Shown: positions 8,189-56,063 of the stretch, piece by piece | How the letters are laid out: each line of letters opens with the position of its first letter | How positions within the stretch are numbered: position 1 is the stretch's first letter | From: Paludibacteraceae bacterium | Lineage (GTDB): Bacteria > Bacteroidota > Bacteroidia > Bacteroidales > Paludibacteraceae | NCBI GenBank assembly: GCA_045658785.1 | Contig: JAZOVR010000013.1 | Location: forward strand, 13,424 to 77,423 | Direction of reading: 5' to 3' | DNA length: 64,000 nt | The notes under the pieces: model-generated | The model's input: only the letters and a program-made list of their open reading frames with translations | Told to the model about the DNA's origin: nothing | Databases searched by the model: none | Program-made: the position numbers and the translations under genes

Positions 8189-8205
8189 GCCATAAGTGGC
8201 TACAT

Positions 8206-8246
8206 AAAAAAAACAAAACAGGGGAAATCCCTGTTTTGTTTTTTAT
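8206..8246. terminator. Bidirectional intrinsic terminator between convergent mutS and acyl-CoA ligase genes
   Basis: AACAAAACAGGG-GAAAT-CCCTGTTTTGTT hairpin, flanked by an A-run on the left and a T-run on the right. Confidence 0.8.
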
Positions 8247-8250
8247 GGAA

Positions 8251-15697: not shown

Positions 15698-15713
15698 CCG
15701 TTTTCTCTAACGA

Positions 15714-40800: not shown

Positions 40801-42823
40801 CAGGTTGGGTATACGTCTTGTTACCGTCGTATGTAATGACGATGTTAGCTATCACATCGGTGTTAGCAACTGACGGATCAACACAAGTGACTGTGATAGG
40901 AGTTTTGCCATAATAAGCCGACGGAGCAGGTATGAAGGTAGGTTGTACCTTGAACTTGGTAGGGTCGTCCACTTCGAGGAAAATTCCCTCGTCATCACAA
41001 GTACTCCAATTAAGTTCGAAAGTATTTTCCGATGGAACACCTACAGCAGTTTCAGGAAGAACAAACACTTCATTTATTGCCAACTGTTGACCATTAACAA
41101 ATGGTTCGACGTATGTGGCTTGTGTCACGAGGACATTCTTTATAAAACGATTAAATGAACCATTACTATAGAATCTTACTTGGGTAGCATTACGGTCTAA
41201 TGTATAACGATGCCCCTCCCAACTCGTCCCAGGCATAAAATCATCTATCTTATGCCATGAACCATTAATCTTCTGCTCCACTTCTATATTACCCACAGCA
41301 GTAGCATTACCAATTCGTGCCTCAAATGAGAGTTGACCAGCAGGGGCATTCCATGACGATGGTGTATACGAGTTACCACCTGGAGCACTATATTTAACGT
41401 CATCAGGTGCATCTAAGACAAATCTCTCGCAACCATCGGTTACATTTCGTACACGGACGGGCATGGTGATTTCTGCTCTTTCGTATGTATCATCGCCGTC
41501 CAAAGTAGCTGTCACATATGTTTCACCTGCTCCAACAATGGTTAGTACTTTACCATTGACTGATACTACATTAGAATTAGCACTGGTATATTTGATAAGT
41601 GCTGTTCGTTCGGGTACTTCTTGCGTTTCCTCTGTCTCTACGTTAACAAGGATATGGGCTGTAGCAGTCATGGTAAATGGCGCATCGCCCGTCTTGAAAC
41701 GAGTGAGGTTGTCCGTCCATTTGATGTATTGGATTTTCTTCTCAGTTACTGTGATAGTTTTTGTACTGCTAATACTATCCCATTTTTCGTCACCTGCTTG
41801 CGAAGCTGTGATAGTGGCTGTTCCTGATGCCAATGCTTTGAAGCTTGCACCATCGTTGGTAATGGCAATTATACTTGTATTACTTGAAGAATATGTAACA
41901 GGTAATCCACTGGTTGCAGTGGCAGCGTCAGACACTTCTTTGCCTACAGGGATGGATGGTTTGTCTGCGGCAAATTTTTCAGACCAAACAATAGATTGAT
42001 TTTTCTTCAAACCTGTACCCGAGACAGAGATTGTGGCAGTAGATGTTCCGTCGGTTAGGGTGATTGTACCACTATAATTTTTTGCTTCGGATGGACAGAA
42101 GTAGATTGTGACGGTATAATTATCAATATTACCCAAATTGCTACCGCCAGCATTGCCTGAACCGCCACCAGCTGCACAGGCATTTGCGCCTACGGCATAC
42201 ACATCACCATTGGTGTTGGTTGAGGTCTTGATGCGGAAAGCATTGTCATTACTTTTGATAGTTATATTGCCTGTAGTTAAGAAAGAACGCAACTTGACCT
42301 CTTGTGCATTGGAAGTACCGTCGATGGTTACCTCTCCAAAAGGGATTGATTTAGAAGTAGTTCCGTATGTTCCGCCCTCTAAAAAAATGTGCTTTTTCAA
42401 AGGTATATACACATCATCAACATATACCTTGCGAGCTAAGTTTTTAGCAGCTGTATAGTTATATTTAAACTCAATAGAGTTAAAACTCTCACTAAACCCT
42501 TCTGCATATTTTGTTGTATATGATTGTTGGTTTCCACCTACAGAAACCGTTTTTCCGCCGACATCCAGTGAGTATTCTCGCGGATCCTGCCCGAAAGATG
42601 TTTCTGACATTTTTGTATTAAAAATAACCTTTCCAGAAGTAGGAGGGTAGAAACTACTATAACTACATATTTTGCCACCACTATCAGTTCCTTTACTTTT
42701 CTCTGAACCATCATAAAAGGAACACCACTCATTATTATAATATACAGGTTGTTGTGCCCAAGCATTAGCAGTTGCCATGAAGAGGGCAAGGAGGAGGGAA
42801 ATATGTCGTAAATTCTTTTTCAT
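37859..42823 (-). CDS. Giant cell-surface protein (Ig-like/Big_2-type domains) with T9SS C-terminal sorting domain
   Basis: 1654 aa with signal peptide MKKNLRHISLLLALFMATANAWAQ. Big_2-like segments (..ATSGLPVTYSSSNTSIIAITNDGASFKALASGTATITASQAGDEKW..). C-terminal ..LSVYTVSGMAITSPL...LSHLPNGVYVLRLNNQAYKFVCK is typical of T9SS type-A CTDs. Confidence 0.85.
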   Translation of the reverse strand: MKKNLRHISLLLALFMATANAWAQQPVYYNNEWCSFYDGSEKSKGTDSGGKICSYSSFYPPTSGKVIFNTKMSETSFGQDPREYSLDVGGKTVSVGGNQQSYTTKYAEGFSESFNSIEFKYNYTAAKNLARKVYVDDVYIPLKKHIFLEGGTYGTTSKSIPFGEVTIDGTSNAQEVKLRSFLTTGNITIKSNDNAFRIKTSTNTNGDVYAVGANACAAGGGSGNAGGSNLGNIDNYTVTIYFCPSEAKNYSGTITLTDGTSTATISVSGTGLKKNQSIVWSEKFAADKPSIPVGKEVSDAATATSGLPVTYSSSNTSIIAITNDGASFKALASGTATITASQAGDEKWDSISSTKTITVTEKKIQYIKWTDNLTRFKTGDAPFTMTATAHILVNVETEETQEVPERTALIKYTSANSNVVSVNGKVLTIVGAGETYVTATLDGDDTYERAEITMPVRVRNVTDGCERFVLDAPDDVKYSAPGGNSYTPSSWNAPAGQLSFEARIGNATAVGNIEVEQKINGSWHKIDDFMPGTSWEGHRYTLDRNATQVRFYSNGSFNRFIKNVLVTQATYVEPFVNGQQLAINEVFVLPETAVGVPSENTFELNWSTCDDEGIFLEVDDPTKFKVQPTFIPAPSAYYGKTPITVTCVDPSVANTDVIANIVITYDGNKTYTQPVKCHVKDKLETWLEYHGKDTYSESDGLVPNLFTLHDNDGVVAGAKIKLTSSNPEILSIVEENGESYLQAHCGGSVVITAEFEGSNKHKPCSTTVTINVPYCQREIDWNTSYLDFAVDANDFIDEKRVLDATINPESEITYQLHAVTSTPFAEIVEEGGIYFVRVFGEGHGYIVATAKECSFEGRMYDVTYKIKEIRVSGADACDPNSLLIWERIENEPYVYRYSTNSNERTRIYHLTGLPAETMTFGAHAASSSYENRLVISFSTESEGDNWIGEYKQEVVSGSQYNWNYSCPVPEGAKRVRFQSEATLTIYFNGVTIPQQTYIRPSVESIEISDAIVNVPFERTFSVDYSNVRLLQWKVSNNHDLGLKVVANQEVNNDCNMHGSYTFTLTGESPYPQTNVTETITFYTSAGDVVNIPVTITATLSEPFYFNIKDGEWNDPNNWTYQGATGKLPDKQFPIVISKNMTVNNGKLVAYGVTIAEGGSVNIQPKGGLTLHAGGFTDGVTRDNFTILNNQDGVGFVRVSPYFTREVEGTMPNINVQYTTRAKAGGAKDQVWQYVGAPGSNMQMSNDGVMVYLWSEKEGWVYSSTNMTPFAGYALTRTASGSETYKISAQPINGDHTIDLTYTQGAMEGGNLFVNSYLAPIDVTKFTDDTNDFEGDIEKTFYLFNSGSWEQWQGQGGSTNTMVNGSSAGQYYAIAPFSAEFTASEEQKVIPPMQGVYVVVGENGGKIKLQYNKHVFRANTEDMNRPMRAPQEDLENFMRLRLQVNSQNSGADRMYVIQHENTTRGYDNGYDAKNILAEGQANIYTNEVDGQMEISVADQIDSTFIGFAAGEDTEYTLTFNSLVGQDMYLHDIEADSLFLLTEDGQYTFSAQPNSMNDMRFQLLLYPDFSDDEPGSGVTTSVDNLLSSAQVWMNNKRVYIASAPQNSTLSVYTVSGMAITSPLAIHHAPCTIDLSHLPNGVYVLRLNNQAYKFVCK

Positions 42824-43480: not shown

Positions 43481-43526
43481 CGGGCTGATTTGTGTGCTTC
43501 TCTCTGTGAGAGAAAAAAGCAGGGCT

Positions 43527-45038
43527 ATGAGTAGTAACCTACAAATGAAAATATTGGCCAAGGAAACCGCTATTTATGGCGTATCGTCCATTGTGGGCAA
43601 GTTCCTCAACTGGATGCTGGTGCCACTATATACCTATGTCTTGCAACAGCAGTCGGACTATGGCATCGTGACCAACTTGTATGCATGGACGGCATTGCTA
43701 TTAGTTGTACTGACATACGGCATGGAGACAGGCTTCTTCCGCTTTGCCAACAAAGAGGGGGAGAATGCGCAGACGGTATATACCACTTCGCTTATTGCGC
43801 TGTTTACCAGTTCGTTGCTCTTTGGTTTGGCGTGCGTGGTGTGGCAAGCACCGTTGGCGAATGCCTTGGGCTATCCTAGCCATTCGGAGTTTGTGGCATT
43901 GCTGGGTGTGACCGTAGCAATAGACGCCTTTGCGAGCATACCGTTTGCGTATTTGCGCTACAAGAAACGTCCGTTGCAGTTTGCTGCATTGAAACTGCTG
44001 TTCGTATTTTTGAATATCGCTCTCAATCTATTCTTCCTCGTGCTTTGTCCGAAGATACAAGACTGGGGGATTATCTCGGCGTGGTACAATGCTGACTACG
44101 GCGTGGGATATGTGTTTGTGGCGAATATCTTGGCGACTGCCATTCAAACAGTCTGCCTATTGCCAGCGGTTGGGGAAGGGTTTAGGAGTTTAGGAGTTCA
44201 GGAGTTCAGAAGTTCAGGAGTATTTTCTTGGGGGTTGCTCAAGCAGATGCTTCGGTACTCGTTGCCATTGTTGGTGTTGGGTGTGTGCGGCATCATGAAC
44301 CAGACATTGGATAGGATATTGTTTCCGTTCTTCTATGACGGAGCGGATGCGCAAGCGCAATTGGGCATCTATGGTGCGTGCTTCAAGGTGGCGATGGTGA
44401 TGATGATGTTCACGCAGGCGTTCCGCTATGCGTATGAGCCGTTTGTTTTTGCTAAGCACAAAGACAGGGAGTCCGTAGCCGCCTATGCCGATGCGATGAA
44501 ATACTATATCATCTTCTCGTATATGATACTACTGGGGATGATATTCTACCTTGACTTGCTGAAATTTATTATCGCTCCTTCCTATTGGGAAGGACTGAAA
44601 GTAGTACCTGTAGTACTTTGGACCTACATCTTCCAAGGCGTGTATTTCAACCTCAGTTTCTGGTACAAACTGACTGACAAGACCCAATGGGGAGCGTATT
44701 TCTCTATCCTCGGGGTGGTGATTACCTTTGCGCTGCAAGCCATCTTTGTGCCACGCATTGGCTATATGGCATCCGCAGCCAGCAGCACGGTTTGCTATTT
44801 GGTGATCATGCTATTGTCGTATTTTGTAGGACGCAAACACCTGGAGATACCCTATGATTTGCGCCGAATTGGCATATACACCCTGCTCGTAGTGGCAGTT
44901 TTGGCAGGATATTACGCTTTGGCACACTTCTTGCCACTCAATGAATGGATGAAGATGGGTATAGGCACTATACTCCTTATTATATATTGTGTATTGTTCT
45001 ATCGTTTGGATGGACGCACACTGATAAAGAAAAAGTAA
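43527..45038 (+). CDS. MOP-superfamily polysaccharide/oligosaccharide flippase (Wzx-like)
   Basis: About 14 TM. The N-terminus MSSNLQMKILAKETAIYGVSSIVGKFLNWMLVPLYT is typical of Bacteroidota polysaccharide biosynthesis proteins. I chose ATG 43527 over the GTG at 43494. Confidence 0.82.
   Translation: MSSNLQMKILAKETAIYGVSSIVGKFLNWMLVPLYTYVLQQQSDYGIVTNLYAWTALLLVVLTYGMETGFFRFANKEGENAQTVYTTSLIALFTSSLLFGLACVVWQAPLANALGYPSHSEFVALLGVTVAIDAFASIPFAYLRYKKRPLQFAALKLLFVFLNIALNLFFLVLCPKIQDWGIISAWYNADYGVGYVFVANILATAIQTVCLLPAVGEGFRSLGVQEFRSSGVFSWGLLKQMLRYSLPLLVLGVCGIMNQTLDRILFPFFYDGADAQAQLGIYGACFKVAMVMMMFTQAFRYAYEPFVFAKHKDRESVAAYADAMKYYIIFSYMILLGMIFYLDLLKFIIAPSYWEGLKVVPVVLWTYIFQGVYFNLSFWYKLTDKTQWGAYFSILGVVITFALQAIFVPRIGYMASAASSTVCYLVIMLLSYFVGRKHLEIPYDLRRIGIYTLLVVAVLAGYYALAHFLPLNEWMKMGIGTILLIIYCVLFYRLDGRTLIKKK
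44180..44219 (+). repeat. Intragenic 5 x 8-bp tandem repeat inside the flippase gene
   Basis: GTTTAGGA GTTTAGGA GTTCAGGA GTTCAGAA GTTCAGGA. It encodes GFRSLGVQEFRSSGV in the central loop between the two TM bundles. Confidence 0.9.
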
Positions 45039-45690: not shown

Positions 45691-46275
45691 ATGGACAAAA
45701 TTAGTTATGCAATTGGCCTAAGCATGGGTCAGAACTTGATGGGAAGTGGTGTCACTTCCCTGGAATATGCTGATTTGGCAGCAGGTATCAAAGATGTACT
45801 AGAGAAAAACCAACCACAGATCTCTTACCAAGAGGCACAACAAGTGTTGGGTAAGTTCTTCAGCGAATTGGAAGAGAAAATCGCAGGCGAAGCAAAAGCA
45901 GCAGGCGAGGCATTCCTCGCAGAGAACGCTAAGCGCGAAGGCGTGAAAGTAACTGAGAGCGGCTTGCAATACGAAGTATTGGAGGCAACTATCGGTCAAA
46001 AGCCAAAAGCAACCGACAAAGTGCGCGTACACTATGAGGGTACATTAATCGACGGCACTGTATTCGATAGCAGCTACAAGCGTGGCGAGAGCATCACTTT
46101 TGGTTTGAATCAAGTGATCAAAGGTTGGACAGAGGGTCTTCAACTCATGTCTATCGGTAGTAAATACAAACTCTACTTGCCATACCAATTGGCATATGGC
46201 GAGCGTGGTGCAGGTGCAAACATACCTCCATACGCAGCATTGATTTTCACCGTAGAGTTGCTCGGAATTGAATAA
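45691..46275 (+). CDS. FKBP-type peptidyl-prolyl cis-trans isomerase
   Basis: 194 aa. FKBP_N-like helical N-terminus plus VRVHYEGTLIDGTVFDSSYKRGESITFGLNQVIKGWTEGL. Confidence 0.9.
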   Translation: MDKISYAIGLSMGQNLMGSGVTSLEYADLAAGIKDVLEKNQPQISYQEAQQVLGKFFSELEEKIAGEAKAAGEAFLAENAKREGVKVTESGLQYEVLEATIGQKPKATDKVRVHYEGTLIDGTVFDSSYKRGESITFGLNQVIKGWTEGLQLMSIGSKYKLYLPYQLAYGERGAGANIPPYAALIFTVELLGIE

Positions 46276-46292
46276 AAATAAACACTTTATAA

Positions 46293-47558
46293 TTGAAAAA
46301 AGAAATGAAAAAAATCTGTATTCTCGCTATCGCTGCAATGGCAATGGTAGCTTGCGGTAATAAATACACCGCCCAAACAGTTGTTCTTAACAATCAGAAC
46401 GACAGTATGAACTATGCACTTGGTTTGATGAATGGTGCTGGTATCAAGATGTATCAATTGCGCAACGACTCTTCTATTGAAACTGTTGCTGAATTTATGG
46501 ACGCTCTTCAACGCGGTTACGACGGCAAGATAGAGCAATTGGGCGAAGTTGCAGCGATAGGTAAAAACATTGGTCAAGCCATCAAAGCCTCTGAGGCAGT
46601 TGGTTTGGCAGACAACCCAGCATGGACATTGAACGAAAAATTGTTCTTCCAAGGTTTGGTCAATGCATTGTACAACGACACCGTGGTTATGAACGCAGAT
46701 GCTGCACGTAACTATTTCCAAGCTCAGTATCAAGCTTCTGCGATGTCTAATGACAGCGTGAAAGCTGGTAAAACAATCAAGAGTAGTTGTCCTAGCAGCG
46801 TGAAAGTTGTGACCTTGGCCAATCAAAATGATAGCGTAAACTACGCATTTGGCTACCTGAATGGTTCAGAAGTATCTATGTATGTATTGGCGATGGATAG
46901 CACAGGCGAGCAAAAGAAAGAGTTTATCGCATATATTAACAAGGGCTTGAAGAGCAAGATCAAGAATCCACAATTGGCAAATATGGGTGAGCAAATCGGC
47001 CGAAACATCAAGGAGCAAGAAGCTCAAGGTCTGGTTAACGAGCCAAGTTTGTCTACAGACTTCGAACTGATTAAGCAAGGATTTGTGAATGGTCTTTTGG
47101 GTGCTACAGAGCAATGGGATAGTGAACTTGCAGGTGAGTATATCCAATCAACTCTGGCAACTATCAAATATGGTGCTGCTAAAGAAGAAGGCGATAAGTT
47201 CTTGGCAGAGAACGCATTGCGCGAAGGCGTAGTTACAACCCCAAGTGGTTTGCAATACGAGATTATCAAGAAGGGTCGTGGCACAAAGACTCCTACCGCT
47301 ACTGATGTGGTAAAAGTACACTACCATGGAACTCTCATTGATGGTACAGTATTTGATAGTAGTGTGGGCAATGAACCTATCAGTTTCGGTCTGACCCAAG
47401 TGATTCCAGGCTGGACAGAAGGTCTGCAACTTATGACTGTGGGTAGCAAATACAAATTCTACATTCCACAACACCTCGGTTATGGTAGCCAACAAGCAGG
47501 TTCTATTCCTCCATACTCAACCTTGATTTTCGAAGTTGAGTTGCTTGGCATTGAATAA
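46293..47558 (+). CDS. FKBP-type PPIase lipoprotein with duplicated N-terminal helical domain
   Basis: 421 aa. Lipoprotein-like signal ..AAMAMVAC. Two NQNDS(M/V)NYA(L/F)G.. repeats. C-terminal VKVHYHGTLIDGTVFDSS...VIPGWTEGL. Confidence 0.85.
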   Translation: MKKEMKKICILAIAAMAMVACGNKYTAQTVVLNNQNDSMNYALGLMNGAGIKMYQLRNDSSIETVAEFMDALQRGYDGKIEQLGEVAAIGKNIGQAIKASEAVGLADNPAWTLNEKLFFQGLVNALYNDTVVMNADAARNYFQAQYQASAMSNDSVKAGKTIKSSCPSSVKVVTLANQNDSVNYAFGYLNGSEVSMYVLAMDSTGEQKKEFIAYINKGLKSKIKNPQLANMGEQIGRNIKEQEAQGLVNEPSLSTDFELIKQGFVNGLLGATEQWDSELAGEYIQSTLATIKYGAAKEEGDKFLAENALREGVVTTPSGLQYEIIKKGRGTKTPTATDVVKVHYHGTLIDGTVFDSSVGNEPISFGLTQVIPGWTEGLQLMTVGSKYKFYIPQHLGYGSQQAGSIPPYSTLIFEVELLGIE

Positions 47559-47686
47559 GTAAGCAAACTTAGTTTGCGATACTGGCAGCATAGCTGCGAA
47601 AATGGTCTTCGACGAAAGTGGCTAAAGCGTACATGCGGCAGCGAATCACTTTCGTGAAACGCAGCGAACCAATAACGCGAAGTATT

Positions 47687-49207
47687 ATGGGCATTATCGC
47701 CAAACAGAGTATACAAGGTACCATCGTCACCTATCTTGGGGTGGCGGTGGGCTTTGTTACTACTTTTTTCGTTCTGACTCGTTTTCTCACCGCGGAGGAG
47801 ATTGGTTTGGCTCGCGTATTGGTAGATGCTGCTACATTGTTTATTGGACTAGCACAGTTGGGTACTTCGTCCTCAATTATTCGGTTTTATCCGCACTTTA
47901 AGAGCAATGAGCAAAGAACCAAGAGCCAAGATGAGCATGGATTTTTCTTTTGGACCCTTGTTGTGCCACTTGTAGGTTTCGCTCTATTCACCGCTATTTA
48001 TTGCGCATGTTATACACCACTTAGCCGCTGGTTTGGAGAGAAATCACCATTGTTTGTAGAGTACTACTACATGGTACTACCGATGGCATTCTTCATGCTC
48101 TATCAGACCATCTTTGAGACCAACGCCAATGTACGTATGCATATTGTTGTGCCTCGTGCAGTGCGCGAACTTATCACGCGTATAGGACTATTGGTAGTAT
48201 ATCTGCTATACGCCATGGATTGGCTGAACATCAATGGCTTTGTAATCGCCCTTTGCTGCGTATATGCCGTAGCAATGTTCTGCAACATGGGGTATCTATT
48301 CTCCCTGGGCGATATTTCGTGGCGCCCAGATTTGGATTTTCTGCGGCAGAATCATTCTCTGGTTCGTCAGTACATCCTTTATACTGGTTTTCTATTGGTT
48401 TCCGCCGTTGCCAGCGTGTTAGCCCCTACCCTATCTTCATTTTTCATCACTGCAGAGATGGGACTCAACTATACTGGTATATTCGCAATTGCGACCTATA
48501 TTGCTGTGATGGTCAGCATTCCCTATCGCTCCATGACAGCGATTGCTGCACCACAATTGGCGCGTGCAATTAAGGAGGAGCACCAACAAGAAACTGCACA
48601 CCTCATGCAGCAAGTCAGTAGTACCCTGCTACTGATTGGCGGAATGATTCTCTGCATGATATGGCTCAATATTGACCTTATCTTCCATATTCTCCCCAAT
48701 GGTGAAACGTATGCCACAGCACGCCAAGTGGTCTTGATTTTGGGTACCAGTCAACTATTGATTGCTGTGTGTTCATTCACATCTTCAGCACTTAACTATT
48801 CACGTTTTTATGCATTTTCGCTATTGTTTTCATTTATTCTAACCGCGTTATCTATATTACTCAATAATCTCCTCATCCCGCATTTTGGTATGAATGGAGC
48901 TGCACTGAGCAACTTATTGGCATATAGCATCTACTTCTTGCTAATTGTACTAACCGTACGTTATACCTTACACACACCTACCTTTACATGCCAACATCTG
49001 AAGATTATTTTTCTCATCATATTGATTATCAACCTGAATTTCCTTTGGCTCAAACATATGCCAATCAATAATATATGGATTAGTAGTATTGTGCGAACAG
49101 TTGTGCTGATTGGGAGCGGGTGTGCTATAGCGTGGTTTAAGAACCTCTCTCCCGAAATCAAACAACAGGTACGTTCTTTAGGCGAAAAATTAAAGGCAAA
49201 AGGTTAA
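47687..49207 (+). CDS. Second MOP-superfamily polysaccharide flippase-like membrane protein
   Basis: About 12-14 TM. MGIIAKQSIQGTIVTYLGVAVGF N-terminus. I chose ATG 47687 over the GTG at 47618. Confidence 0.7.
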   Translation: MGIIAKQSIQGTIVTYLGVAVGFVTTFFVLTRFLTAEEIGLARVLVDAATLFIGLAQLGTSSSIIRFYPHFKSNEQRTKSQDEHGFFFWTLVVPLVGFALFTAIYCACYTPLSRWFGEKSPLFVEYYYMVLPMAFFMLYQTIFETNANVRMHIVVPRAVRELITRIGLLVVYLLYAMDWLNINGFVIALCCVYAVAMFCNMGYLFSLGDISWRPDLDFLRQNHSLVRQYILYTGFLLVSAVASVLAPTLSSFFITAEMGLNYTGIFAIATYIAVMVSIPYRSMTAIAAPQLARAIKEEHQQETAHLMQQVSSTLLLIGGMILCMIWLNIDLIFHILPNGETYATARQVVLILGTSQLLIAVCSFTSSALNYSRFYAFSLLFSFILTALSILLNNLLIPHFGMNGAALSNLLAYSIYFLLIVLTVRYTLHTPTFTCQHLKIIFLIILIINLNFLWLKHMPINNIWISSIVRTVVLIGSGCAIAWFKNLSPEIKQQVRSLGEKLKAKG

Positions 49208-49218
49208 AGGCAAGAATT

Positions 49219-50019
49219 ATGCGTTATTTTATCCGCTTTGCATACGATGGTACAGCCTTCCACGGCTCGCAACGTCAGCCCAATGGCATTACGGTGCAAG
49301 AGACCATGGAACAGGCACTCCAAATGATCTACCGAGAAGAGGTCCCCGTGACTTTCGCAGGTCGGACCGATGCAGGTGTTCATGCTCGCGAGATGTATGC
49401 ACATATGGACATAGGCGAAAATATACCCCACGAAACTACGATTTCCGCAGTTCCTCCCGTTGAGGCGATGAAGCGAGAATGCGAAAGGCTTGCTTTTCGT
49501 CTTAATGGTATTTTGCCCGATTCCATCGCTATTTTTGATATCCAACCAGTGGTAGATGAGGCACATGCTCGCTTCTCAGCTTTGCGCCGTACCTATGAGT
49601 ATCATGTCATTGACCACAAAGATCCGTTCCTGCTACCTTATGCGACACGCCTTCGCACCCCATTGAACTATGCAGCCATGAACGAGGCCGCACAATATCT
49701 CATAGGGCGTCAAGATTTTGCTTCATTCTGCCGTACACATACAGATGTCAAAACCACTATCTGTGACCTCACACAAGCGGAGTGGAAAGAGTTGGGGAAT
49801 GGGCATGCCGTATTCACCATTCGTGCGGACCGATTTTTGCGTAATATGGTGCGTGCAGTAGTAGGAACACTTTTTCTAGTGGGACAAGGCAAGATGACCA
49901 AAGAGCAATTTGCAGAAGTGATTACCCAACGCAATCGCTGCAGCGCTGGTGACTCTGCACCTGCACGAGGATTATATCTAACACGGATTGAATACCCTGA
50001 CAATATATTTTTGAGATGA
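49219..50019 (+). CDS. truA: tRNA pseudouridine(38-40) synthase
   Basis: 266 aa. MRYFIRFAYDGTAFHGSQRQ and catalytic GRTDAGVHA. Confidence 0.93.
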   Translation: MRYFIRFAYDGTAFHGSQRQPNGITVQETMEQALQMIYREEVPVTFAGRTDAGVHAREMYAHMDIGENIPHETTISAVPPVEAMKRECERLAFRLNGILPDSIAIFDIQPVVDEAHARFSALRRTYEYHVIDHKDPFLLPYATRLRTPLNYAAMNEAAQYLIGRQDFASFCRTHTDVKTTICDLTQAEWKELGNGHAVFTIRADRFLRNMVRAVVGTLFLVGQGKMTKEQFAEVITQRNRCSAGDSAPARGLYLTRIEYPDNIFLR

Positions 50020-50933
50020 CCAGATTTCATATGATTACACTTATCATCTGCACATATAATCGCGAGAAATATATCCGTCCTTTATTGGAAAGCATTGCTA
50101 AAAATGATTATCCTACAACGGATTATGAAATTGTCTTGGTGGATAATAATTGCACCGATAACACTCGTAGTGCTTGTGAGCAATTTGCCACAGCACATCC
50201 AGAAGTAGCGCTTCGCTATGTAGTAGAGCCAGAGCAAGGTTTGTCTGCGGCACGCAATAAGGGTATCAAAGAAGCAAAGGGTGATATTATCATCTATGTA
50301 GATGATGACGCGCTGGTGGATAGTGATTATATTCGAATTTATGCCGAACATTTCGCCACTCATTCAGGTACTATGGCAGCAGGTGGTCCGATTGAACCGC
50401 TGTATGAAACTCAAGAGCCTTTATGGATGTCGCCTTACACCAAAGCCCTATTGACCGCATGGATGAACTATGGCGATAAGGTGCGCGAGTATCCCCAAGG
50501 TCGTTACCCAGGAGGCGGTAACGCAGCCTATCGGAAAGAGGTGTTTGATAAGATAGGGCTATTCAATACGGAATTGGGAAGAAAAGGCAATTTGCTTTTG
50601 GCGTCAGAAGAGAAAGATATCTTTGATAAGATGAAGGCACTGGGTATGAAGGTGCTCTATCTACCAACTCCAGTTCTCCACCACTGCATTCCTCAGGCGA
50701 AATTAGAAGAAGACTATTTCAATCGTTTGACACTACAAATCGGTCGTAGCGAGCGCATGCGCACGCGCGCTATATCTAAAGGTAAATACCTCTCTCGATT
50801 GGTTTCGGAGGCAGTGAAATGGGGTGGTACATTGGCACTGCTATGTATCTACACATTTCAACTCCACCCTATGAAAGGATGGAAACTAGTACTTTTCCGC
50901 AAGAATGTAACGAAGGGATTGTTGGGCGGCTAG
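50016..50933 (+). CDS. Family 2 glycosyltransferase
   Basis: 305 aa. TLIICTYNRE, VLVDNNCTD, YVDDDA (DxD). ATGA overlap with truA. Confidence 0.85.
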   Translation: MTRFHMITLIICTYNREKYIRPLLESIAKNDYPTTDYEIVLVDNNCTDNTRSACEQFATAHPEVALRYVVEPEQGLSAARNKGIKEAKGDIIIYVDDDALVDSDYIRIYAEHFATHSGTMAAGGPIEPLYETQEPLWMSPYTKALLTAWMNYGDKVREYPQGRYPGGGNAAYRKEVFDKIGLFNTELGRKGNLLLASEEKDIFDKMKALGMKVLYLPTPVLHHCIPQAKLEEDYFNRLTLQIGRSERMRTRAISKGKYLSRLVSEAVKWGGTLALLCIYTFQLHPMKGWKLVLFRKNVTKGLLGG

Positions 50934-52126
50934 GAGAGCAATTGAAGTTTCTCGAAAACTAATTCACAACTATTCTTACCACTCGTCTCGCCCCAGAACT
51001 TACCTAGTATCTTCTGGCGAGCGGTTGTGTCCATCGTATAGTCGTTGGTAGAAATCACTCGGATAAGTTCATCAAAAGTATAGACTTTTCTTCCGACAAT
51101 ATTCTCCTGAATATCAAAGATAAACTCACGACTATTCACATACTCCTCGTAGTCATAATGGAAGAGAATGACATGCTTATTAGGCATAAGGATATAGTCG
51201 TACAGGATAGACGAATAGTCCGTAATTAGCACATGGGTGTATGGCAGAATACAATACATATCCACATTGCCGTCTAAGAATATTAGGTTGCTATATTCGA
51301 CTGACTTATCAATAATAGTATTGGCATGGGGCTTCATCAGCACGCATGCATTTTGCGCCGCAGCGCAAGCGTTGAGAGCATTGAGGTCAAATCCATTGGC
51401 GAAGCATTCACGCTGCGAATCACGCCAAGTAGGCATATACACTAATACAGTATCATATTGCTGGATATGTGCTACCAACTGCTTAGTGACCTCTGATTCA
51501 TATTGCTGGATAAACGCTCCCACCTCTGCCAATGGCTTGTTCAAAAGCATATTACGAGGGCATCCAGTCTGAATACATTGCGCCTTGCTTATACGGAAGG
51601 ATTGAGAAAACACACCATCAAAGAAATCTGTAGTAGATACCATATAGTCTGGACGGCGGAATGGTGCAGGATGGAAGAAAGTATCTCGGATATCGCGTTG
51701 TACATAGCGTTTGGCTAAATCTCCCTTGGTGATACCAAACTCAATAGCTTTCATTGGTACACCATGCCAAAGATTGACGATCTTAGCACTACCTGCGAGG
51801 CAGAAAGCTATATCCGACGAATAGGAATTGACAAACCAGTATTTTGCTCTCAACGCATACCATAGTCCTTTAAATGAAGCCACAAAATAAGCTTCATAAC
51901 CCAAACTACGAATATGCGCTACTGTGGATTTTTTGGTAGAAATCCATACGAGCTTGCGATTCTTAATATGCTCATTGGCGTAAATGAACTGGTATTTGGA
52001 ATTATCATTGAATCCACCTCTATAGGAACCAAAGACCAATATCTTACTCGTTCGTGGAACGAGGTAAGACAAAGGGTAAACCATGTAGCACAGGAGGTAT
52101 GCTATGAATTTGGCGAACTGTTTCAT
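50930..52126 (-). CDS. CDP-glycerol/CDP-alditol phosphotransferase (TagB/TagF family)
   Basis: 398 aa. NLWHGVPMK and YMPTWRD motifs of the Glyphos_transf family. Confidence 0.85.
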   Translation of the reverse strand: MKQFAKFIAYLLCYMVYPLSYLVPRTSKILVFGSYRGGFNDNSKYQFIYANEHIKNRKLVWISTKKSTVAHIRSLGYEAYFVASFKGLWYALRAKYWFVNSYSSDIAFCLAGSAKIVNLWHGVPMKAIEFGITKGDLAKRYVQRDIRDTFFHPAPFRRPDYMVSTTDFFDGVFSQSFRISKAQCIQTGCPRNMLLNKPLAEVGAFIQQYESEVTKQLVAHIQQYDTVLVYMPTWRDSQRECFANGFDLNALNACAAAQNACVLMKPHANTIIDKSVEYSNLIFLDGNVDMYCILPYTHVLITDYSSILYDYILMPNKHVILFHYDYEEYVNSREFIFDIQENIVGRKVYTFDELIRVISTNDYTMDTTARQKILGKFWGETSGKNSCELVFEKLQLLS

Positions 52127-53574
52127 TCTCCACGTAGTTTGTGCAATGTTTCGTTAATCAGGGTAGATGAAGTGCCTTTGGTATAAGGGAAATACACTAC
52201 CTTTGCTCCTACAGCATTGAGGTCGGCCTCGATCTTGTTCCACTTGTCGGTGCCCTTCCAATCATCACCCACGAACATAACATGGAAGTGGTATTTCTCC
52301 CATGCCTCCATCTTGTTCATATTCTCTTGGGTGACCACTTCATCTACATACTGAATTGCGCCCACAATCTCCTTGCGTTCCTCAAAAGGAATGACCGCAT
52401 GTTTGTGTTTGTAACTCACTAACTCGTCTGTCGATACACCTACAATAAGGTAGTCACATTGCGCTTTGGCTTTGCGTAATAGATTGAGGTGACCGATATG
52501 GAATAAGTCATACACGCCAGTGGTATAGCCAATTGTGATAGGCTCATACATATTGAGGAACTGCTCCAAGCAGTATAGTTGCCATTTTTGATTGCCCGTG
52601 AGTTGGGTCATGTCAATATCACGGCGAAACTCTGGGCGTGTTGGACCTTGCCAATCTTTGAAATACGCATCCACAGGACGAGGCATTGGCACTTTATTTG
52701 GCACAGGAATCTCAGGGTATTTTATCTGCATGAGTTCACGGATAAGATACTTTGATTCGCCATTGCGTACACGAATCAAGTCCAATGGGTCTGCCATGCG
52801 GAGTAGAGCGTATGGATCGGTATAAGGCATACCCGCTGTCTTAAAGGCATTGTAGTAGGAACTGGATGACTCGCGACTAAACACATCATCCATAAAGTGT
52901 AAGAAATCAATCTTCTCTCCTTGGCGATAGCGCTCATAAAGATAGGACATATCCTCGGACTCTCTCAATACGCGAGCAGGATCAAGGAAGGTATAGCGTT
53001 TCGCAAAGTCTTCTACCGTCCAATCTCTGGAGAGCAGTTGATCCATACCGCCAAAGATCAGGTCGCTACTCTCGCCCACAATCAAGCGAGTCACGCCATC
53101 TGCTTTGGCTTGTAGGGCTGCTTGATAGAGTTGTGGCTCGATGGAGTGAACAGGAGCGTTCTTTGAACGCATTACTGGCTCAAGACAGTTTTGTACTGTA
53201 TTCCAATCTATATCCACATAGTGGAGGTTTAGTCCGTAGTACTTTGCGTAGTATTCTGCACGAGCCAATTCCTCTTTTTGGTATTCACCACCAAGGAAAC
53301 GGAAGGTGTAGGCATCGCAACCAGGCATGTAGGCTGCCAAAATAGCGGAGTCCATACCGCCCGAAAGGCAGATACCTAGTTTCTCGCCTTGGAGCGAGTC
53401 AAAGACTTTTTGGATAGCGTTGTCAATATCCTGTGCGGTATGCACATAAGTAAAATACTCTGGATTAGATAGTGGTATATTTTCGTGATGAAGTTCAGGA
53501 TAGAAATCCATGCCTTCGCGCTCGATGTAACGGAAAGCTAAATAGGAACTCATGCAGAAATTCTTGTTGTTCAT
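52123..53574 (-). CDS. Fusion: asparagine-synthetase-like PP-loop domain (no glutaminase domain) plus TagD-like cytidylyltransferase
   Basis: 483 aa. N-terminal part has the PP-loop LSGGMDSA, then ..VGESSDLIFGGMD... C-terminal ~135 aa has GYTTGVYDLFHIGHLNLLRKA (HxGH nucleotidyltransferase motif) and ..GTSST.., as in glycerol-3-phosphate cytidylyltransferase. Confidence 0.8.
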   Translation of the reverse strand: MNNKNFCMSSYLAFRYIEREGMDFYPELHHENIPLSNPEYFTYVHTAQDIDNAIQKVFDSLQGEKLGICLSGGMDSAILAAYMPGCDAYTFRFLGGEYQKEELARAEYYAKYYGLNLHYVDIDWNTVQNCLEPVMRSKNAPVHSIEPQLYQAALQAKADGVTRLIVGESSDLIFGGMDQLLSRDWTVEDFAKRYTFLDPARVLRESEDMSYLYERYRQGEKIDFLHFMDDVFSRESSSSYYNAFKTAGMPYTDPYALLRMADPLDLIRVRNGESKYLIRELMQIKYPEIPVPNKVPMPRPVDAYFKDWQGPTRPEFRRDIDMTQLTGNQKWQLYCLEQFLNMYEPITIGYTTGVYDLFHIGHLNLLRKAKAQCDYLIVGVSTDELVSYKHKHAVIPFEERKEIVGAIQYVDEVVTQENMNKMEAWEKYHFHVMFVGDDWKGTDKWNKIEADLNAVGAKVVYFPYTKGTSSTLINETLHKLRGE

Positions 53575-53575
53575 T

Positions 53576-54280
53576 TTATATATCTTCTTTGAATGTTATT
53601 TTCTTGTTTTGTTCTTCGCCCTCAACAATATAGATTGGCACCTGAGGCATGTGTTCATGCACAATCCCACAATCGTCTGTTGCTGGCAAATGACATGCAG
53701 AGCATGCTGGTACATCGCAAATATCTGCTCCGAGAGCTTTGGCGTATGCTTCGGCTATCAACTCTAAGCGGAATGCCTGTGGTGTTTGGGCACGCATGAC
53801 GGTAGCACGGTTAGGAATACGCGCGACTTTGCCATCTACCATTTCATAAACAGTGTCTGTACTTGGGATAGCCACCGTCACGGCCTCATGCTCCTCTAGC
53901 GCCTCGCACACACGAGCAATGATGTCTTGACTGACAAATGGTCTTGCCGCATCGTGCAAGAGTAAGTTTGCCTGTTCGCCTTTCGCCTCATCGCCTAATA
54001 GCTTTATTGCCTGTACACTAGACTCCCAACGTTCTTTGCCGCCAGGGATGATGTGGCTAACTTTTTGCCATGCGTTGGCGAGAAGCATTTGCTCGGCATG
54101 CATGATATAGTCGGGGTGCATAACAATGCAAATCTCCTGAATATGAGGCGATTGCTCGAAGGCATCTACTGCGTGTTCCAAGACACTCTTGCCATCTTGC
54201 AATGGCAACAATTGCTTAGGAGTATTACCTCCTACTCGGGCACCTATGCCTCCTGCTAATATGACTGCGATGTTAGTCAA
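53576..54280 (-). CDS. IspD/TarI-family sugar-alcohol-phosphate cytidylyltransferase; TTG start
   Basis: 234 aa. AVILAGGIGARVGGNTPKQLLPL, HDAARPF, QTPQAF. A Cys-rich insertion DICDVPACSACHLPA precedes TDDCG. The only possible start upstream of the glycine-rich loop is TTG 54280; a stop lies 8 codons upstream in frame. Confidence 0.78.
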   Translation of the reverse strand: MTNIAVILAGGIGARVGGNTPKQLLPLQDGKSVLEHAVDAFEQSPHIQEICIVMHPDYIMHAEQMLLANAWQKVSHIIPGGKERWESSVQAIKLLGDEAKGEQANLLLHDAARPFVSQDIIARVCEALEEHEAVTVAIPSTDTVYEMVDGKVARIPNRATVMRAQTPQAFRLELIAEAYAKALGADICDVPACSACHLPATDDCGIVHEHMPQVPIYIVEGEEQNKKITFKEDI

Positions 54281-54313
54281 TTTTGAATTATGAATTAAGA
54301 ATTATGAATTGTT
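54279..54313. repeat. AT-rich heptamer run AATTTTG AATTATG AATTAAG AATTATG AATTGTT
   Basis: Read directly. It spans the stop of the KdsC-like gene and the TTG start of the cytidylyltransferase gene. Near-identical blocks occur at 9891-9918 and 58169-58197. Confidence 0.85.
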
Positions 54314-54805
54314 TTTTGCTGCGAGGATCATTTCGCAGATTTCGCGGATGGCGCCATCGCCACCTTTTTTAGTAAGTTGAATAATGCCAGGAACGGCTTT
54401 TACCTCGGGAATGGCATTGGCTGGGCAAGCGGCTACGCCTGCGTGTTGCAAGAGATCAAGGTCGTTCACATCATCGCCTACAAAGCAGACATTCTCCAAT
54501 GTGATACCTAACTCAGCGCAAATTTGGTTAGCAGCATCGAGTTTGGTCATCTTCACGCCATCCACTACGCGGCCGACACCCGTGTAGATATATTCTAATC
54601 CTAGTTTCTGTCCACGTTTCATGCCAATGGCTGTATTCTCGCTGGTGAGGATACCGCAAGGGATTCCCGCTTTGCGCAGAAGAACAATGCCCATGCCGTC
54701 ATATACGCAAAAGCGTTTGAACTCATCACCGCTCTCGGTGTAGTACATGCCGCCGTCGGTCATGCAACCGTCCACGTCGGTGAGAAAAAGTTTGATATTT
54801 TTCAT
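54302..54805 (-). CDS. HAD-IIIA phosphatase, KdsC family
   Basis: MKNIKLFLTDVDGCMTDGGMYY.. (DxDG motif), ..ILTSENT.., ..FVGDDVNDL... I chose Met41 of the tracked ORF because a TACCTTTG promoter lies inside the upstream extension. Confidence 0.8.
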   Translation of the reverse strand: MKNIKLFLTDVDGCMTDGGMYYTESGDEFKRFCVYDGMGIVLLRKAGIPCGILTSENTAIGMKRGQKLGLEYIYTGVGRVVDGVKMTKLDAANQICAELGITLENVCFVGDDVNDLDLLQHAGVAACPANAIPEVKAVPGIIQLTKKGGDGAIREICEMILAAKNNS

Positions 54806-54825
54806 TTCTTTCCTATTTATGGGGA

Positions 54826-54857
54826 CAAAGGTACAACTTTTTTCGTTAATATGCAAA
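54826..54857 (-). promoter_or_regulatory. -33/-7 promoter of the four-gene tag-like operon
   Basis: Minus strand reads TTTG(CATATTAAC), about 20-nt spacer, TACCTTTG, about 20 nt upstream of ATG 54805. Coordinates are +/-1. Confidence 0.6.
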
Positions 54858-54871
54858 TTAAGCTGAAAATA

Positions 54872-54903
54872 TTTGTGTATGTTAAAAAAAAAATGTACCT
54901 TTG
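54872..54903 (+). promoter_or_regulatory. -33/-7 promoter of GT4-rpe-comEC cluster (divergent from previous)
   Basis: TTTG 54872-54875, 20-nt spacer, TACCTTTG 54896-54903; ATG at 54924. Confidence 0.6.
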
Positions 54904-54923
54904 CGGGTAAAATAGTATGATCC

Positions 54924-56063
54924 ATGCGAATTGTAATTTTAGGTACAGCTTGGCCCTACAGAGGCGGATTGGCAGCGTTTAACGAACGACTTGCTAGACA
55001 ATTTGTAATAGAAGGACACCAAGTGGAAGTGGTGACATTTCGTTTGCAATACCCTGGTTTTCTTTTCCCAGGAAAGACGCAGTATAGCCATGAAGTTGCT
55101 CCTGAAGGATTGAAAATCACCCGCGAAATAAATTCGTGCAACCCATTGAGTTGGATTAAAGTAGGCAAAAGATTGAAAAAGGAAGCACCCGATTTGTTAA
55201 TCAGTTGCTATTGGATGGCATTCTTTGCGCCATGCTACGGAGTGATTCAAAACATCGTCAAACGCAATGGTAAGACAAAATGTATCGCACTGGTACACAA
55301 CATGATACCACATGAGCCAAGTATATTGGACAAATTATTGGCGCCATTTTACGTAAAGCAGAACGATGGTTTTGTAGCGTTGTCAGATAGCGTAGTGAAG
55401 GATATTGCTTCGTTGGATAAATACAACAAACCCAAAACGTTCTCTCCTCACCCTGTATATGATCATTATGGCGAAAAAATGGACAAAAATGCAGCATGCG
55501 AAGCGTTAGGATTGAATCCTCACAAAAATTACATGCTATTTTTCGGTTTGGTTAGAGCATACAAGGGACTGGACTGGTTGTTGGAAGCGTTTGCAAAAGT
55601 GAAAGATGAATTGACGGATTTGCAGTTGATTGTAGCGGGAGAGTTTTATGAGGATGAGGATAAATATCGCAAGCAGATTGCGGATAACGGCTTGATAGAT
55701 AGAGTGATTATCAAGAACGAGTTTGTTGCAGATGCTGATTTGAGAAAATATTTTGGAGCAGCCGATTTAATCGTTCAGCCATACAAGACAGCCACGCAAA
55801 GTGGGGTGACACAGGTGGCGTTCCACTTCGAGAAACCTTGTTTGGTGACCAATGTAGGTGGATTAGGTGAGATTATTCATCACGGGAAGATGGGCTATGC
55901 CGTTGATCCGCAAGTAGATGCAATAGCCGATGCGCTGATTGATTATTATGCGAACGATAGACAGGCAGCGTTTACAGAATACTTAATAAAGGAAAAAGAA
56001 TTGTACGGATGGAATATCATGGCGCAAGCTTTCTACCGTATTTTGTTACATATGGAAAAATAA
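54924..56063 (+). CDS. Family 4 (GT-B) glycosyltransferase
   Basis: 379 aa. MRIVILGTAWPYRGG N-terminus. The C-terminal half has ..PYKTATQSGV...EKP..TNVGGLGEII.. (E-x7-E-like region). Confidence 0.82.
   Translation: MRIVILGTAWPYRGGLAAFNERLARQFVIEGHQVEVVTFRLQYPGFLFPGKTQYSHEVAPEGLKITREINSCNPLSWIKVGKRLKKEAPDLLISCYWMAFFAPCYGVIQNIVKRNGKTKCIALVHNMIPHEPSILDKLLAPFYVKQNDGFVALSDSVVKDIASLDKYNKPKTFSPHPVYDHYGEKMDKNAACEALGLNPHKNYMLFFGLVRAYKGLDWLLEAFAKVKDELTDLQLIVAGEFYEDEDKYRKQIADNGLIDRVIIKNEFVADADLRKYFGAADLIVQPYKTATQSGVTQVAFHFEKPCLVTNVGGLGEIIHHGKMGYAVDPQVDAIADALIDYYANDRQAAFTEYLIKEKELYGWNIMAQAFYRILLHMEK

Follow-up and report, generated by a model that had tools for sequence, protein, structure and literature searches.

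What does a bacterium make with a protein that joins an asparagine-synthetase-like domain to a cytidylyltransferase, and on which surface structure would the product be placed? The question is raised by a four-gene operon on the minus strand of a 64,000-nucleotide (nt) stretch of contig JAZOVR010000013.1 (positions 13,424 to 77,423) from a Paludibacteraceae bacterium (assembly GCA_045658785.1); we refer to this whole stretch as the window. The operon encodes a HAD phosphatase of the KdsC subfamily, an IspD/TarI-family cytidylyltransferase, the fusion protein, which has an AsnB-like half followed by a TagD-like half, and a TagF/TarF-like phosphotransferase. A sequence-only reading of the window had treated the four genes as one teichoic-acid-style pathway for cytidine diphosphate (CDP)-alditols that builds a phospho-alditol-containing, possibly amidated or amino-acylated surface glycan. 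Our analysis favors another division of labor, to which we give a probability of about 0.55: the fusion would make a CDP-activated, amide-bearing phospho-alcohol, the TagF-like enzyme would transfer it to a glycan of the lipooligosaccharide (LOS) or capsular polysaccharide (CPS) type, and the HAD and IspD-like proteins would not take part in the fusion's pathway. Phosphodiester-linked non-sugar substituents such as glycerol-phosphate, ribitol-phosphate, choline-phosphate and phospho-threonine strongly shape immunogenicity, recognition by phages and lectins, and surface charge, and only a handful of CDP-activated donors are known.

The fusion (483 amino acids, aa; 52123..53574, minus strand) begins with an AsnB-type PP-loop adenylating domain (aa 1-345; 52540..53574, minus strand), in which Pfam PF00733 matches aa 64-217 (E = 2e-16). 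No GATase Pfam match was found at the N-terminus of the fusion, where the synthetase domain begins about 60 aa in. The asparagine synthetase model TIGR01536 gave 43.6 bits against a cut-off of 267, and the N-terminal nucleophile (Ntn) glutaminase is lacking. Compared with the PDB as a single sequence, the fusion matched through its C-terminal domain only, and a family profile was needed to reach AsnB. With this N-terminal profile we recovered AsnB (1ct9, E = 4e-11), CarA and beta-lactam synthetase, and the 1ct9 alignment lines up the SGGxDS loop and the GxxxD..FGG segment. Near-invariant positions in an alignment of 85 sequences include the PP-loop S71-G-G-M-D-S76 (part of SGGMDSA at aa 71-77), D171 (approximately AsnB D351) and K294 (approximately AsnB K449), and about 30 further positions of the domain are invariant among sequences that are only 36-45% identical. 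The place of the glutaminase is taken by a conserved N-terminal segment of about 60 aa (K4, C7, S9, R15), and additional invariant arginines are found at R15, R193, R299 and R313. Because the PP-loop, D171 and K294 are kept at 36-45% identity, the domain looks catalytically competent.

The second half of the fusion (aa 346-483; 52123..52539, minus strand) is a TagD-like HxGH nucleotidyl(cytidylyl)transferase domain, with PF01467 over aa 350-473 (E = 1e-16), a HIGH motif at aa 359-362, and PDB matches to TagD (1coz), TarD (2b7l) and ECT (3elb). It is 41% identical to Bacillus subtilis TagD, contains a 7-aa insert, and scores 100.9 bits on TIGR01518, the equivalog model of glycerol-3-phosphate cytidylyltransferase, which has a cut-off of 165.4. 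Where the TagD signature reads RTEGISTT, the window protein and all eight partner proteins that we examined, from five phyla, read YTKGTSST. On these features we class the domain as a distinct subfamily. Lys44, Lys46 and Arg55 (B. subtilis numbering) and the GDDW motif are retained, and since the phosphoglycerol-binding lysines are thus kept in the pocket, the substrate may resemble glycerol-3-phosphate. The AlphaFold2 model of the fusion, computed from the 85-sequence alignment, reached a predicted local distance difference test score of 89.6 and a predicted template modeling score of 0.89. In Foldseek comparisons, residues ~1-345 of the model matched the synthetase domains of AsnB, TsnB9 and the carbapenam synthetase CarA, while residues ~347-483 matched TarD, TagD and the cytidylyltransferase domain of Fom1. 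Pfam models, the predicted structure and Foldseek therefore agree with the two-domain assignment of the sequence-only reading, including the missing glutaminase domain, and the remaining families that it expected in the operon (PF01128, PF04464 and the HAD model PF08282) were recovered along with PF00733 and PF01467. We also considered that the fusion might be an assembly artefact. This is excluded, as metagenomes hold thousands of proteins with the same architecture and over 50 species-level genomes encode it.

The two domains are found together far beyond the Bacteroidales. A word-index search with the fusion returned 6771 proteins at E <= 1e-3, with PF00733 plus PF01467 in most of those listed, and an exhaustive search gave 266 clusters (50% identity) at E <= 1e-30. 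Among genome loci, the nearest ones (up to 96% identical) belong to Paludibacteraceae/Bacteroidales metagenome-assembled genomes (MAGs) from the guts of ruminants and other animals, and the window itself is from a gut or rumen bacterium. Overall, the pair was found in at least seven phyla (Bacteroidota, Bacillota, Campylobacterota, Spirochaetota, Planctomycetota, Hydrogenedentota and Elusimicrobiota), accompanied by a TagF or LicD neighbor. The AsnB-like (~345 aa) and TagD-like (~140 aa) domains were linked in every arrangement seen, whether fused, fused in reverse or encoded by neighboring genes. Fusions in the order of the window occur in Bacteroidales, and the reverse order, TagD-like and then AsnB-like, is found in protein P0122. 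Most relatives of the AsnB-like domain are stand-alone proteins of about 350 aa; in loci from Firmicutes, Elusimicrobium and "Tenericutes" a TagD-like gene of about 145 aa lies directly 5' of the AsnB-like gene, often overlapping it, and proteins of 700 aa are tandem AsnB-like duplications that adjoin a TagD-like gene and LicD. We looked up eight stand-alone AsnB-like members taken from a profile search that was blind to TagD, and all eight had a PF01467 gene adjacent or at most four genes away (Campylobacter lanienae, Clostridium sporogenes, Brachyspira, Planctomycetes, Hydrogenedentota, a Bacilli MAG and two metagenome contigs). Across phyla, identity among the TagD-like partners is 57-70%, and all of them have YTKGTSST. 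Together, the two independent fusion orders and the near-universal adjacency are strong Rosetta-stone evidence for a single pathway shared by the AsnB-like and TagD-like proteins.

The surroundings of the pair vary greatly between hosts. In the Bacilli MAG, it forms a minimal island of LicD/TagD/AsnB/AsnB amid tRNA-modification and DNA-repair genes, and the self-sufficiency of this island argues for central metabolites as the substrates. On six plasmids of Lactiplantibacillus plantarum, an exopolysaccharide (EPS) cluster includes TagF-like, TagD-like, AsnB-like and flippase genes, which places the module in a culturable and genetically tractable host; these plasmids are mobilizable or conjugative (for example NZ_CP035567.1, 4021-8168, locus L092, and five others). 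In NZ_CP035567.1 the gene pair encodes WP_129607501.1 and WP_128468836.1. The C. sporogenes module (locus L085, 4053-11270, in MWJJ01000002.1) lies in a flagellar glycosylation island and adjoins two flagellin genes; its neighbors encode a 1475-aa Glyphos_transf plus radical-SAM protein, a DUF362 protein, Maf (MptE-like) and nonulosonic-acid enzymes. This context suggests that the same donor decorates flagellin glycans. A DUF362 gene (PF04015) directly follows the AsnB-like gene in Planctomycetes, Hydrogenedentota, Clostridia and others (L087, L088, L085, L091, L053, L058, L067, L072 and L077), often together with radical-SAM and TylF-like methyltransferase genes, and the Bacteroidales fusion loci are without it. 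A comparison of DUF362 with PDB sequences gave no match and hence no functional clue.

The presumed user of the fusion product is the TagF-like protein (398 aa; 50930..52126, minus strand), which gives a full-length match to PF04464 over aa 17-387 (E = 1e-53) and carries NLWHG at aa 118-122 and YMPTWR at aa 230-235. Its scores on the TarF (NF041712), TarL and TarB equivalog models are 108, 70 and 37 bits, below the respective cut-offs of 550, 1000 and 500. For the analysis of neighbors, open reading frames (ORFs) within 7 kb of the gene were clustered across 79 genome loci. LicD was present in 35 of these loci, the TagF type of the window in 25 and a second TagF type in 8; LicD or TagF lay within 7 kb in 66 of 79 and at most two genes away in 64 of 79, and several of the loci without either are contig ends. 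Where the TagF-like gene is present, it is always directly 3' of the fusion. A DNA comparison of the window with its closest relative, L001, showed collinearity through rpe, GT4, HAD, IspD and the fusion that ends exactly at 52126, at the fusion stop codon and TagF start, and L001 has LicD and a GT4 in place of the TagF and GT2 of the window. L007, L010, L024 and L050 share the TagF plus GT2 block (50031-52125) with the window, and L001 and L055 lack it. Retention of a donor-making enzyme while the transferase and glycosyltransferase are swapped, as this pattern is best read, is typical of glycan diversification, and the swap argues that TagF and LicD use the fusion product on different acceptors. 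We therefore take the core unit to be the AsnB-like and TagD-like fusion plus a phosphotransferase, either TagF or LicD. Because the TagF-like protein is short, has a single domain and is interchangeable with LicD, it is suggested to add a single phospho-substituent rather than a teichoic-acid-like polymer. The domain calls thus support the earlier proposal of CDP-alcohol/TagF-type chemistry in a diderm member of the Bacteroidota. As for the glycan itself, an amidated phospho-substituent is the most economical form of that proposal, and nothing points to a teichoic-acid-like polymer.

From these features we can outline a mechanism, in which we infer the order of reactions, the use of ammonia and cytidine triphosphate (CTP), what the moiety is and which glycan accepts it. 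The AsnB-like domain, with adenosine triphosphate (ATP), would adenylate the carboxylate of a small phosphorylated metabolite or of its CDP derivative, and would then turn the adenylated carboxylate into an amide. Free ammonia would be the simplest source of the amine, given that there is no glutaminase domain and that nearly all hosts live in ammonia-rich habitats; otherwise, another amine may serve. With CTP, the TagD-like domain would convert the phospho-compound to a CDP-activated donor, from which the TagF-like enzyme, or LicD in sister genomes, would take the phospho-moiety and link it through a phosphodiester to a surface-glycan sugar. This acceptor may be of LOS-core or CPS type, built by the neighboring GT2 and GT4 enzymes. 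One candidate route to the donor, which is speculative, runs from phosphoglycerate through phosphoglyceramide to CDP-glyceramide. The HAD and IspD-like proteins, which share the transcript, would most likely provide Kdo (3-deoxy-D-manno-octulosonic acid) and isoprenoids or form a separate CDP-pentitol arm.

This scheme combines elements of several known systems. With the teichoic-acid enzymes TagD/TarD and TagF/TarF of Bacillus and Staphylococcus, and with the TagF-like capsule polymerases of Gram-negative pathogens, the module shares an HxGH cytidylyltransferase, a PF04464 phosphotransferase and the logic of making phosphodiester links from a CDP-alcohol donor. It differs from teichoic-acid pathways in the obligate pairing of its TagD-like protein with an AsnB-like adenylating domain, in the YTKGTSST motif, the 7-aa insert and the sub-equivalog score of that protein, and in a TagF-like enzyme that lies far under the TarF/TarL/TarB cut-offs, is interchangeable with LicD and belongs to a diderm host. 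In common with the AsnB superfamily (AsnB, beta-lactam synthetase, CarA and TsnB9), it has a PP-loop synthetase fold, SGGxDS and equivalents of D351 and K449, and the chemistry to be expected is formation of an acyl-adenylate followed by formation of an amide. Unlike AsnB, it lacks the Ntn glutaminase and has the ~60-aa N-terminal segment, a variable equivalent of Glu348 and the extra invariant arginines. A CDP-activated, amide-containing intermediate is already known from capsule decoration in Campylobacter jejuni, where the O-methyl phosphoramidate pathway proceeds through CDP-L-glutamine; its enzymes are a glutamine kinase, a cytidylyltransferase of the NTP-transferase type and a hydrolase, and these families differ from those of the module.

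The closest conceptual precedent is the FtaABCD system of Clostridioides difficile (CD0241-CD0244), which carries out the Type A post-glycosylation modification of flagellin (PMC10714395; bioRxiv 10.64898/2026.02.12.704994). There, CDP-threonine is tailored while bound to CDP and then moved by a TagF-like enzyme, FtaD, which transfers N-methyl-phosphothreonine from CDP-N-methylthreonine (bioRxiv 10.64898/2026.02.12.704994; PMC10714395). TagF-like enzymes can therefore handle donors that are not alditols, and the Fta operon likewise contains a HAD and a nucleotidyltransferase gene. According to the descriptions in these papers, the Fta cytidylyltransferase has a GT-A-type NTP-transferase fold, whereas that of the window is TagD-like; the Fta HAD is PSP/ThrH-like, whereas Pfam and NCBIfam models mark the window HAD as KdsC-like; and the tailoring enzyme is a methyltransferase, for which the window operon has an AsnB-like ligase and no methyltransferase gene. 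None of the four Fta enzyme types, as described there, is AsnB-like or TagD-like. In the open-access literature we found no characterized pair of an AsnB-like protein and a cytidylyltransferase and no characterized member of this architecture, in line with the sequence-only reading, which could name none. NCBIfam holds no model specific to the fusion or the gene pair, no solved structure was found, and the database labels are only "asparagine synthase-related" or "cytidyltransferase family". The paradigm of decoration by a CDP-donor and TagF or LicD is already known, while the enzyme pair and its presumed product appear to be new.

Several observations weigh against the amide-donor reading. 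At the position of AsnB Glu348 the window protein has Glu and the family as a whole varies, and the chemistry of the AsnB-like domain may accordingly differ from that of AsnB. The missing Arg of RTEGISTT, together with the TagD score below its cut-off, means that the nucleotide could be ATP and not CTP. In many relatives there are two AsnB-like paralogues, accompanied by genes for DUF362, radical-SAM or methyltransferase proteins, and a simple carboxamide does not account for these additional enzymes. Finally, the HAD and IspD-like genes are tightly packed with the fusion (with a 1-nt gap), which is compatible with a shared pathway.

The last point leads to the strongest rival explanation, in which all four genes form one teichoic-acid-style pathway. 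Here the IspD-like protein would make a CDP-pentitol (ribitol or arabinitol) and the TagD-like domain CDP-glycerol, the HAD would trim a phosphorylated intermediate, the TagF-like enzyme would polymerize or attach alditol-phosphates, and the AsnB-like domain would add an amide or aminoacyl decoration. The HAD (167 aa; 54302..54805, minus strand; ATG at MKNIKLF) matches PF00702 and PF08282 and scores 125.6 bits on the KdsC subfamily model TIGR01670, above the cut-off of 107. On the equivalog model NF058599 for 2-keto-3-deoxy-nonulosonic acid (KDN)-9-phosphate phosphatase it scores 168.7 bits against a cut-off of 180, and on the KdsC equivalog 112 bits against 208. Its best PDB match is the KDN-9-phosphate phosphatase BT1713 (3e81, E = 6e-39), of which Glu56, Arg64 and Lys67 are kept, while the KdsC of Bacteroides thetaiotaomicron (4hgn) is matched at E = 2e-15 only. 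We also considered a Bacteroides-type KdsC; the protein is much nearer to BT1713 than to BT1677, but linkage to KpsF in relatives still fits a Kdo role. The HAD is probably a phosphatase of the Kdo-8-phosphate or KDN-9-phosphate type, and it probably lies outside the core module.

The IspD-like protein (234 aa; 53576..54280, minus strand) matches PF01128 (E = 1e-43). It scores 167.2 bits on TIGR00453, below the cut-off of 181.3, and its orthologues without an insert score 168-177; on the TarI subfamily model it and its orthologues reach 131-144 bits against a cut-off of 166. Structures of TarI and IspD are mixed among its top PDB matches and fit equally well, so that by its sequence it may be either a housekeeping IspD or a CDP-pentitol paralogue. 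An insertion at aa 186-200, DICDVPACSACHLPA, had been described as containing five cysteines; it contains three, or four if that of TDDCG is counted. The insert is limited to close relatives, which differ in the number of its cysteines (for example VDSLSAEACAEAHLPA), and it is missing from more distant orthologues; this rules out a conserved metal or redox site and leaves the feature without significance. The TTG start codon appears to be correct, since orthologues begin at the same residue with ATG.

Both genes accompany the fusion in 33-40 Bacteroidales loci and are absent from all non-Bacteroidales modules, where the sole matches are 27-29% identical. Even among Paludibacteraceae, L015, L051, L028 and L030 have fusion plus TagF or fusion plus LicD in other contexts without HAD or IspD, and fusion plus TagF stands alone in this way in L015, L051 and L028. 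The Paludibacteraceae MAG RGIG7379 (JAFYSK01) has two copies of the fusion on separate contigs (L012 and L016), 95% and 92% identical to that of the window, and HAD and IspD adjoin just one of these copies. We considered whether disruption of the IspD-like gene in relatives would speak against a housekeeping role, and this proved not to be decisive. In L016 the gene is split across two reading frames, by either a frameshift or an assembly error, and in L003 it is intact, the tight packing being broken by a two-gene insertion (7940-9202) between HAD and IspD-like that, judging by its sequence, looks like a HipA-type toxin-antitoxin pair. In more divergent relatives, HAD and IspD are found with a KpsF/KdsD arabinose-5-phosphate isomerase (TIGR00393, 317 bits), ThiL and a GT4, and further with GmhA, a GHMP kinase, a nucleotidyltransferase-HAD heptose set and sometimes an SDR. 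KdsD beside a KdsC-type HAD is the classical Kdo pair, as in E. coli kdsD-kdsC, and this neighborhood hence points to the core of LOS or lipopolysaccharide (LPS).

The packing of all four genes into one transcription unit speaks for the single teichoic-acid-style pathway, as does the IspD-like protein, which fits TarI structures as well as IspD and stays below the IspD cut-off in every locus. Several related loci also have SDR and KpsF genes beside HAD-IspD, which resembles CDP-arabinitol synthesis of the AbpA/AbpB type, and the C. difficile Fta system likewise combines HAD, nucleotidyltransferase and TagF-like proteins (PMC10714395). Against this, the window has neither a reductase (TarJ- or AbpB-like) nor KpsF, and the pathway would have two putative donors but a single phosphotransferase. 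The TDDxG motif near the C-terminus of the IspD-like protein is also IspD-like and not TarI-like, judging from PDB alignments. The HAD, KpsF, heptose genes and ThiL of relatives resemble a Kdo/LOS-core and housekeeping neighborhood, and the absence of HAD and IspD from every module outside the Bacteroidales and from the L015, L051 and L028 copies likewise speaks against a role in the same pathway. We therefore regard this explanation as unlikely: the four genes probably do not form one CDP-alditol pathway, as HAD and IspD are missing from the unit outside Paludibacteraceae and from some Paludibacteraceae copies. For the two genes themselves, we lean toward co-transcribed housekeeping or Kdo-supply functions, with a separate CDP-pentitol arm as a serious but less favored option.

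A second rival, to which we give slightly less credence, keeps the fusion as the core of the system but gives its halves separate targets. The TagD-like domain would supply TagF or LicD with ordinary CDP-glycerol, the AsnB-like domain would amidate a glycan carboxylate, on a uronic acid, Kdo or a nonulosonic acid, and the fusion would serve co-regulation only. AsnB homologues that amidate carboxylates of the cell envelope exist (WbpS, LtsA and AsnB1), the retained Lys44, Lys46, Arg55 and GDDW are compatible with glycerol-3-phosphate, and the C. sporogenes copy adjoins nonulosonic-acid genes. Two independent fusion orders and near-obligate adjacency, seen in at least seven phyla and in widely differing glycan settings, are nevertheless hard to account for unless the halves share a pathway, and LicD is the sole glycan gene in the minimal Bacilli island. 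In addition, the TagD-like partners are highly conserved and stand apart from canonical TagD as a subfamily of their own. It is highly improbable that the AsnB-like domain is catalytically dead and acts as a scaffold or regulatory domain of a CDP-glycerol synthase, as would fit the unconserved Glu348 equivalent and the coverage of only the first half of the domain by PF00733, because SGGxDS, D171, K294 and some 30 other positions are invariant at 36-45% identity and most of the family are stand-alone proteins of about 350 aa.

The module probably defines a new nucleotide-activated donor. More tentatively, the pair could make a previously undescribed CDP-linked small acid amide, such as CDP-glyceramide, which members of at least seven phyla would place through TagF or LicD on LOS, capsules, EPS and flagellin glycans. 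D-glyceramide 2-phosphate has been reported as an O-antigen substituent of Providencia alcalifaciens O22, in work cited in PMC6222762. Knowing the product would extend both the list of donors and the uses of the AsnB fold, would explain a recurrent unannotated gene pair in glycan loci, and might link orphan structures such as glyceramide phosphate to their genes. Many gut and rumen bacteria carry the module, among them Paludibacteraceae, Lachnospiraceae, Oscillospiraceae, Selenomonadaceae, Brachyspira, Campylobacter/Helicobacter and, on plasmids, L. plantarum, and the module is testable in the culturable hosts L. plantarum and C. sporogenes.

The layout of the operon agrees closely with the sequence-only reading, whose four minus-strand ORFs (at the stated coordinates), TTG start of the IspD-like gene, and junctions were all found in the window: HAD and IspD-like are 21 nt apart, IspD-like and fusion 1 nt apart, and fusion and TagF-like overlap by the 4 nt of ATGA. 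The motifs of the promoter that it had placed ahead of the operon are likewise present (54826..54857, minus strand), with a -33 TTTG at 54857..54854 and a -7 TACCTTTG at 54833..54826, 20 nt apart, and the end of TACCTTTG lies 21 nt before the HAD ATG. From the Bacteroides consensus, we take this pair to be a putative Bacteroidetes-type promoter. A longer ORF of 207 aa in the HAD frame, from an ATG at 54925, would read through the promoter and overlap the GT4 start codon, and is almost certainly spurious.

The glycosyltransferase genes on either side are also confirmed by Pfam, with the GT2 gene convergent (50016..50933, plus strand; PF00535, E = 3e-31) and the GT4 gene divergent from the operon promoter (54924..56063, plus strand; PF13692 and PF00534). 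The intergenic region between GT4 (plus) and HAD (minus) spans 118 bp (54806-54923), and the GT4 adjoining HAD/IspD is kept in 25 related loci. At their 3' ends, the TagF-like and GT2 genes share a palindromic CTAG (50930-50933) that provides a TAG stop on either strand, leaving no room for a terminator between them; the 4-nt overlap is kept in the relatives with the TagF plus GT2 cassette (L007, L010, L024 and L050). Two MOP flippases had been placed upstream of the operon, and both genes are recognizable as Polysacc_synt-type candidates (47618..49207, plus strand, PF01943, E = 8e-11; and 43494-45038, PF13440, E = 1e-7), but they lie 1.7-7.4 kb past the 3' end of the operon. In 28 Bacteroidales loci, an apparently multi-pass membrane protein of about 855 aa is encoded downstream of the fusion (among them L001, L007 at 13581-16148, L010, L030, L035 and L040). 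It had no Pfam match and has no copy within the window, and it could be a GT-C-like enzyme or a polymerase candidate.

The rest of the window is ordinary chromosome, with mutS, pfk, truA, rpe, comEC, xseA, FKBP isomerase genes and a gene for a cargo protein of the type IX secretion system (T9SS), so that the operon does not lie inside a large capsule locus. Two large surface or secreted proteins are encoded on the minus strand, namely a 1654-aa ORF (37859-42823) in which a T9SS C-terminal sorting domain is weakly recognizable and a 931-aa protein with BspA-type leucine-rich repeats and PEGA (12902-15697). The genes for FKBP-type peptidyl-prolyl isomerases are arranged in tandem on the plus strand (45691-46275 and 46293-47558), between riboflavin synthase and a flippase candidate, and the second of them has an N-terminal extension of about 230 aa.

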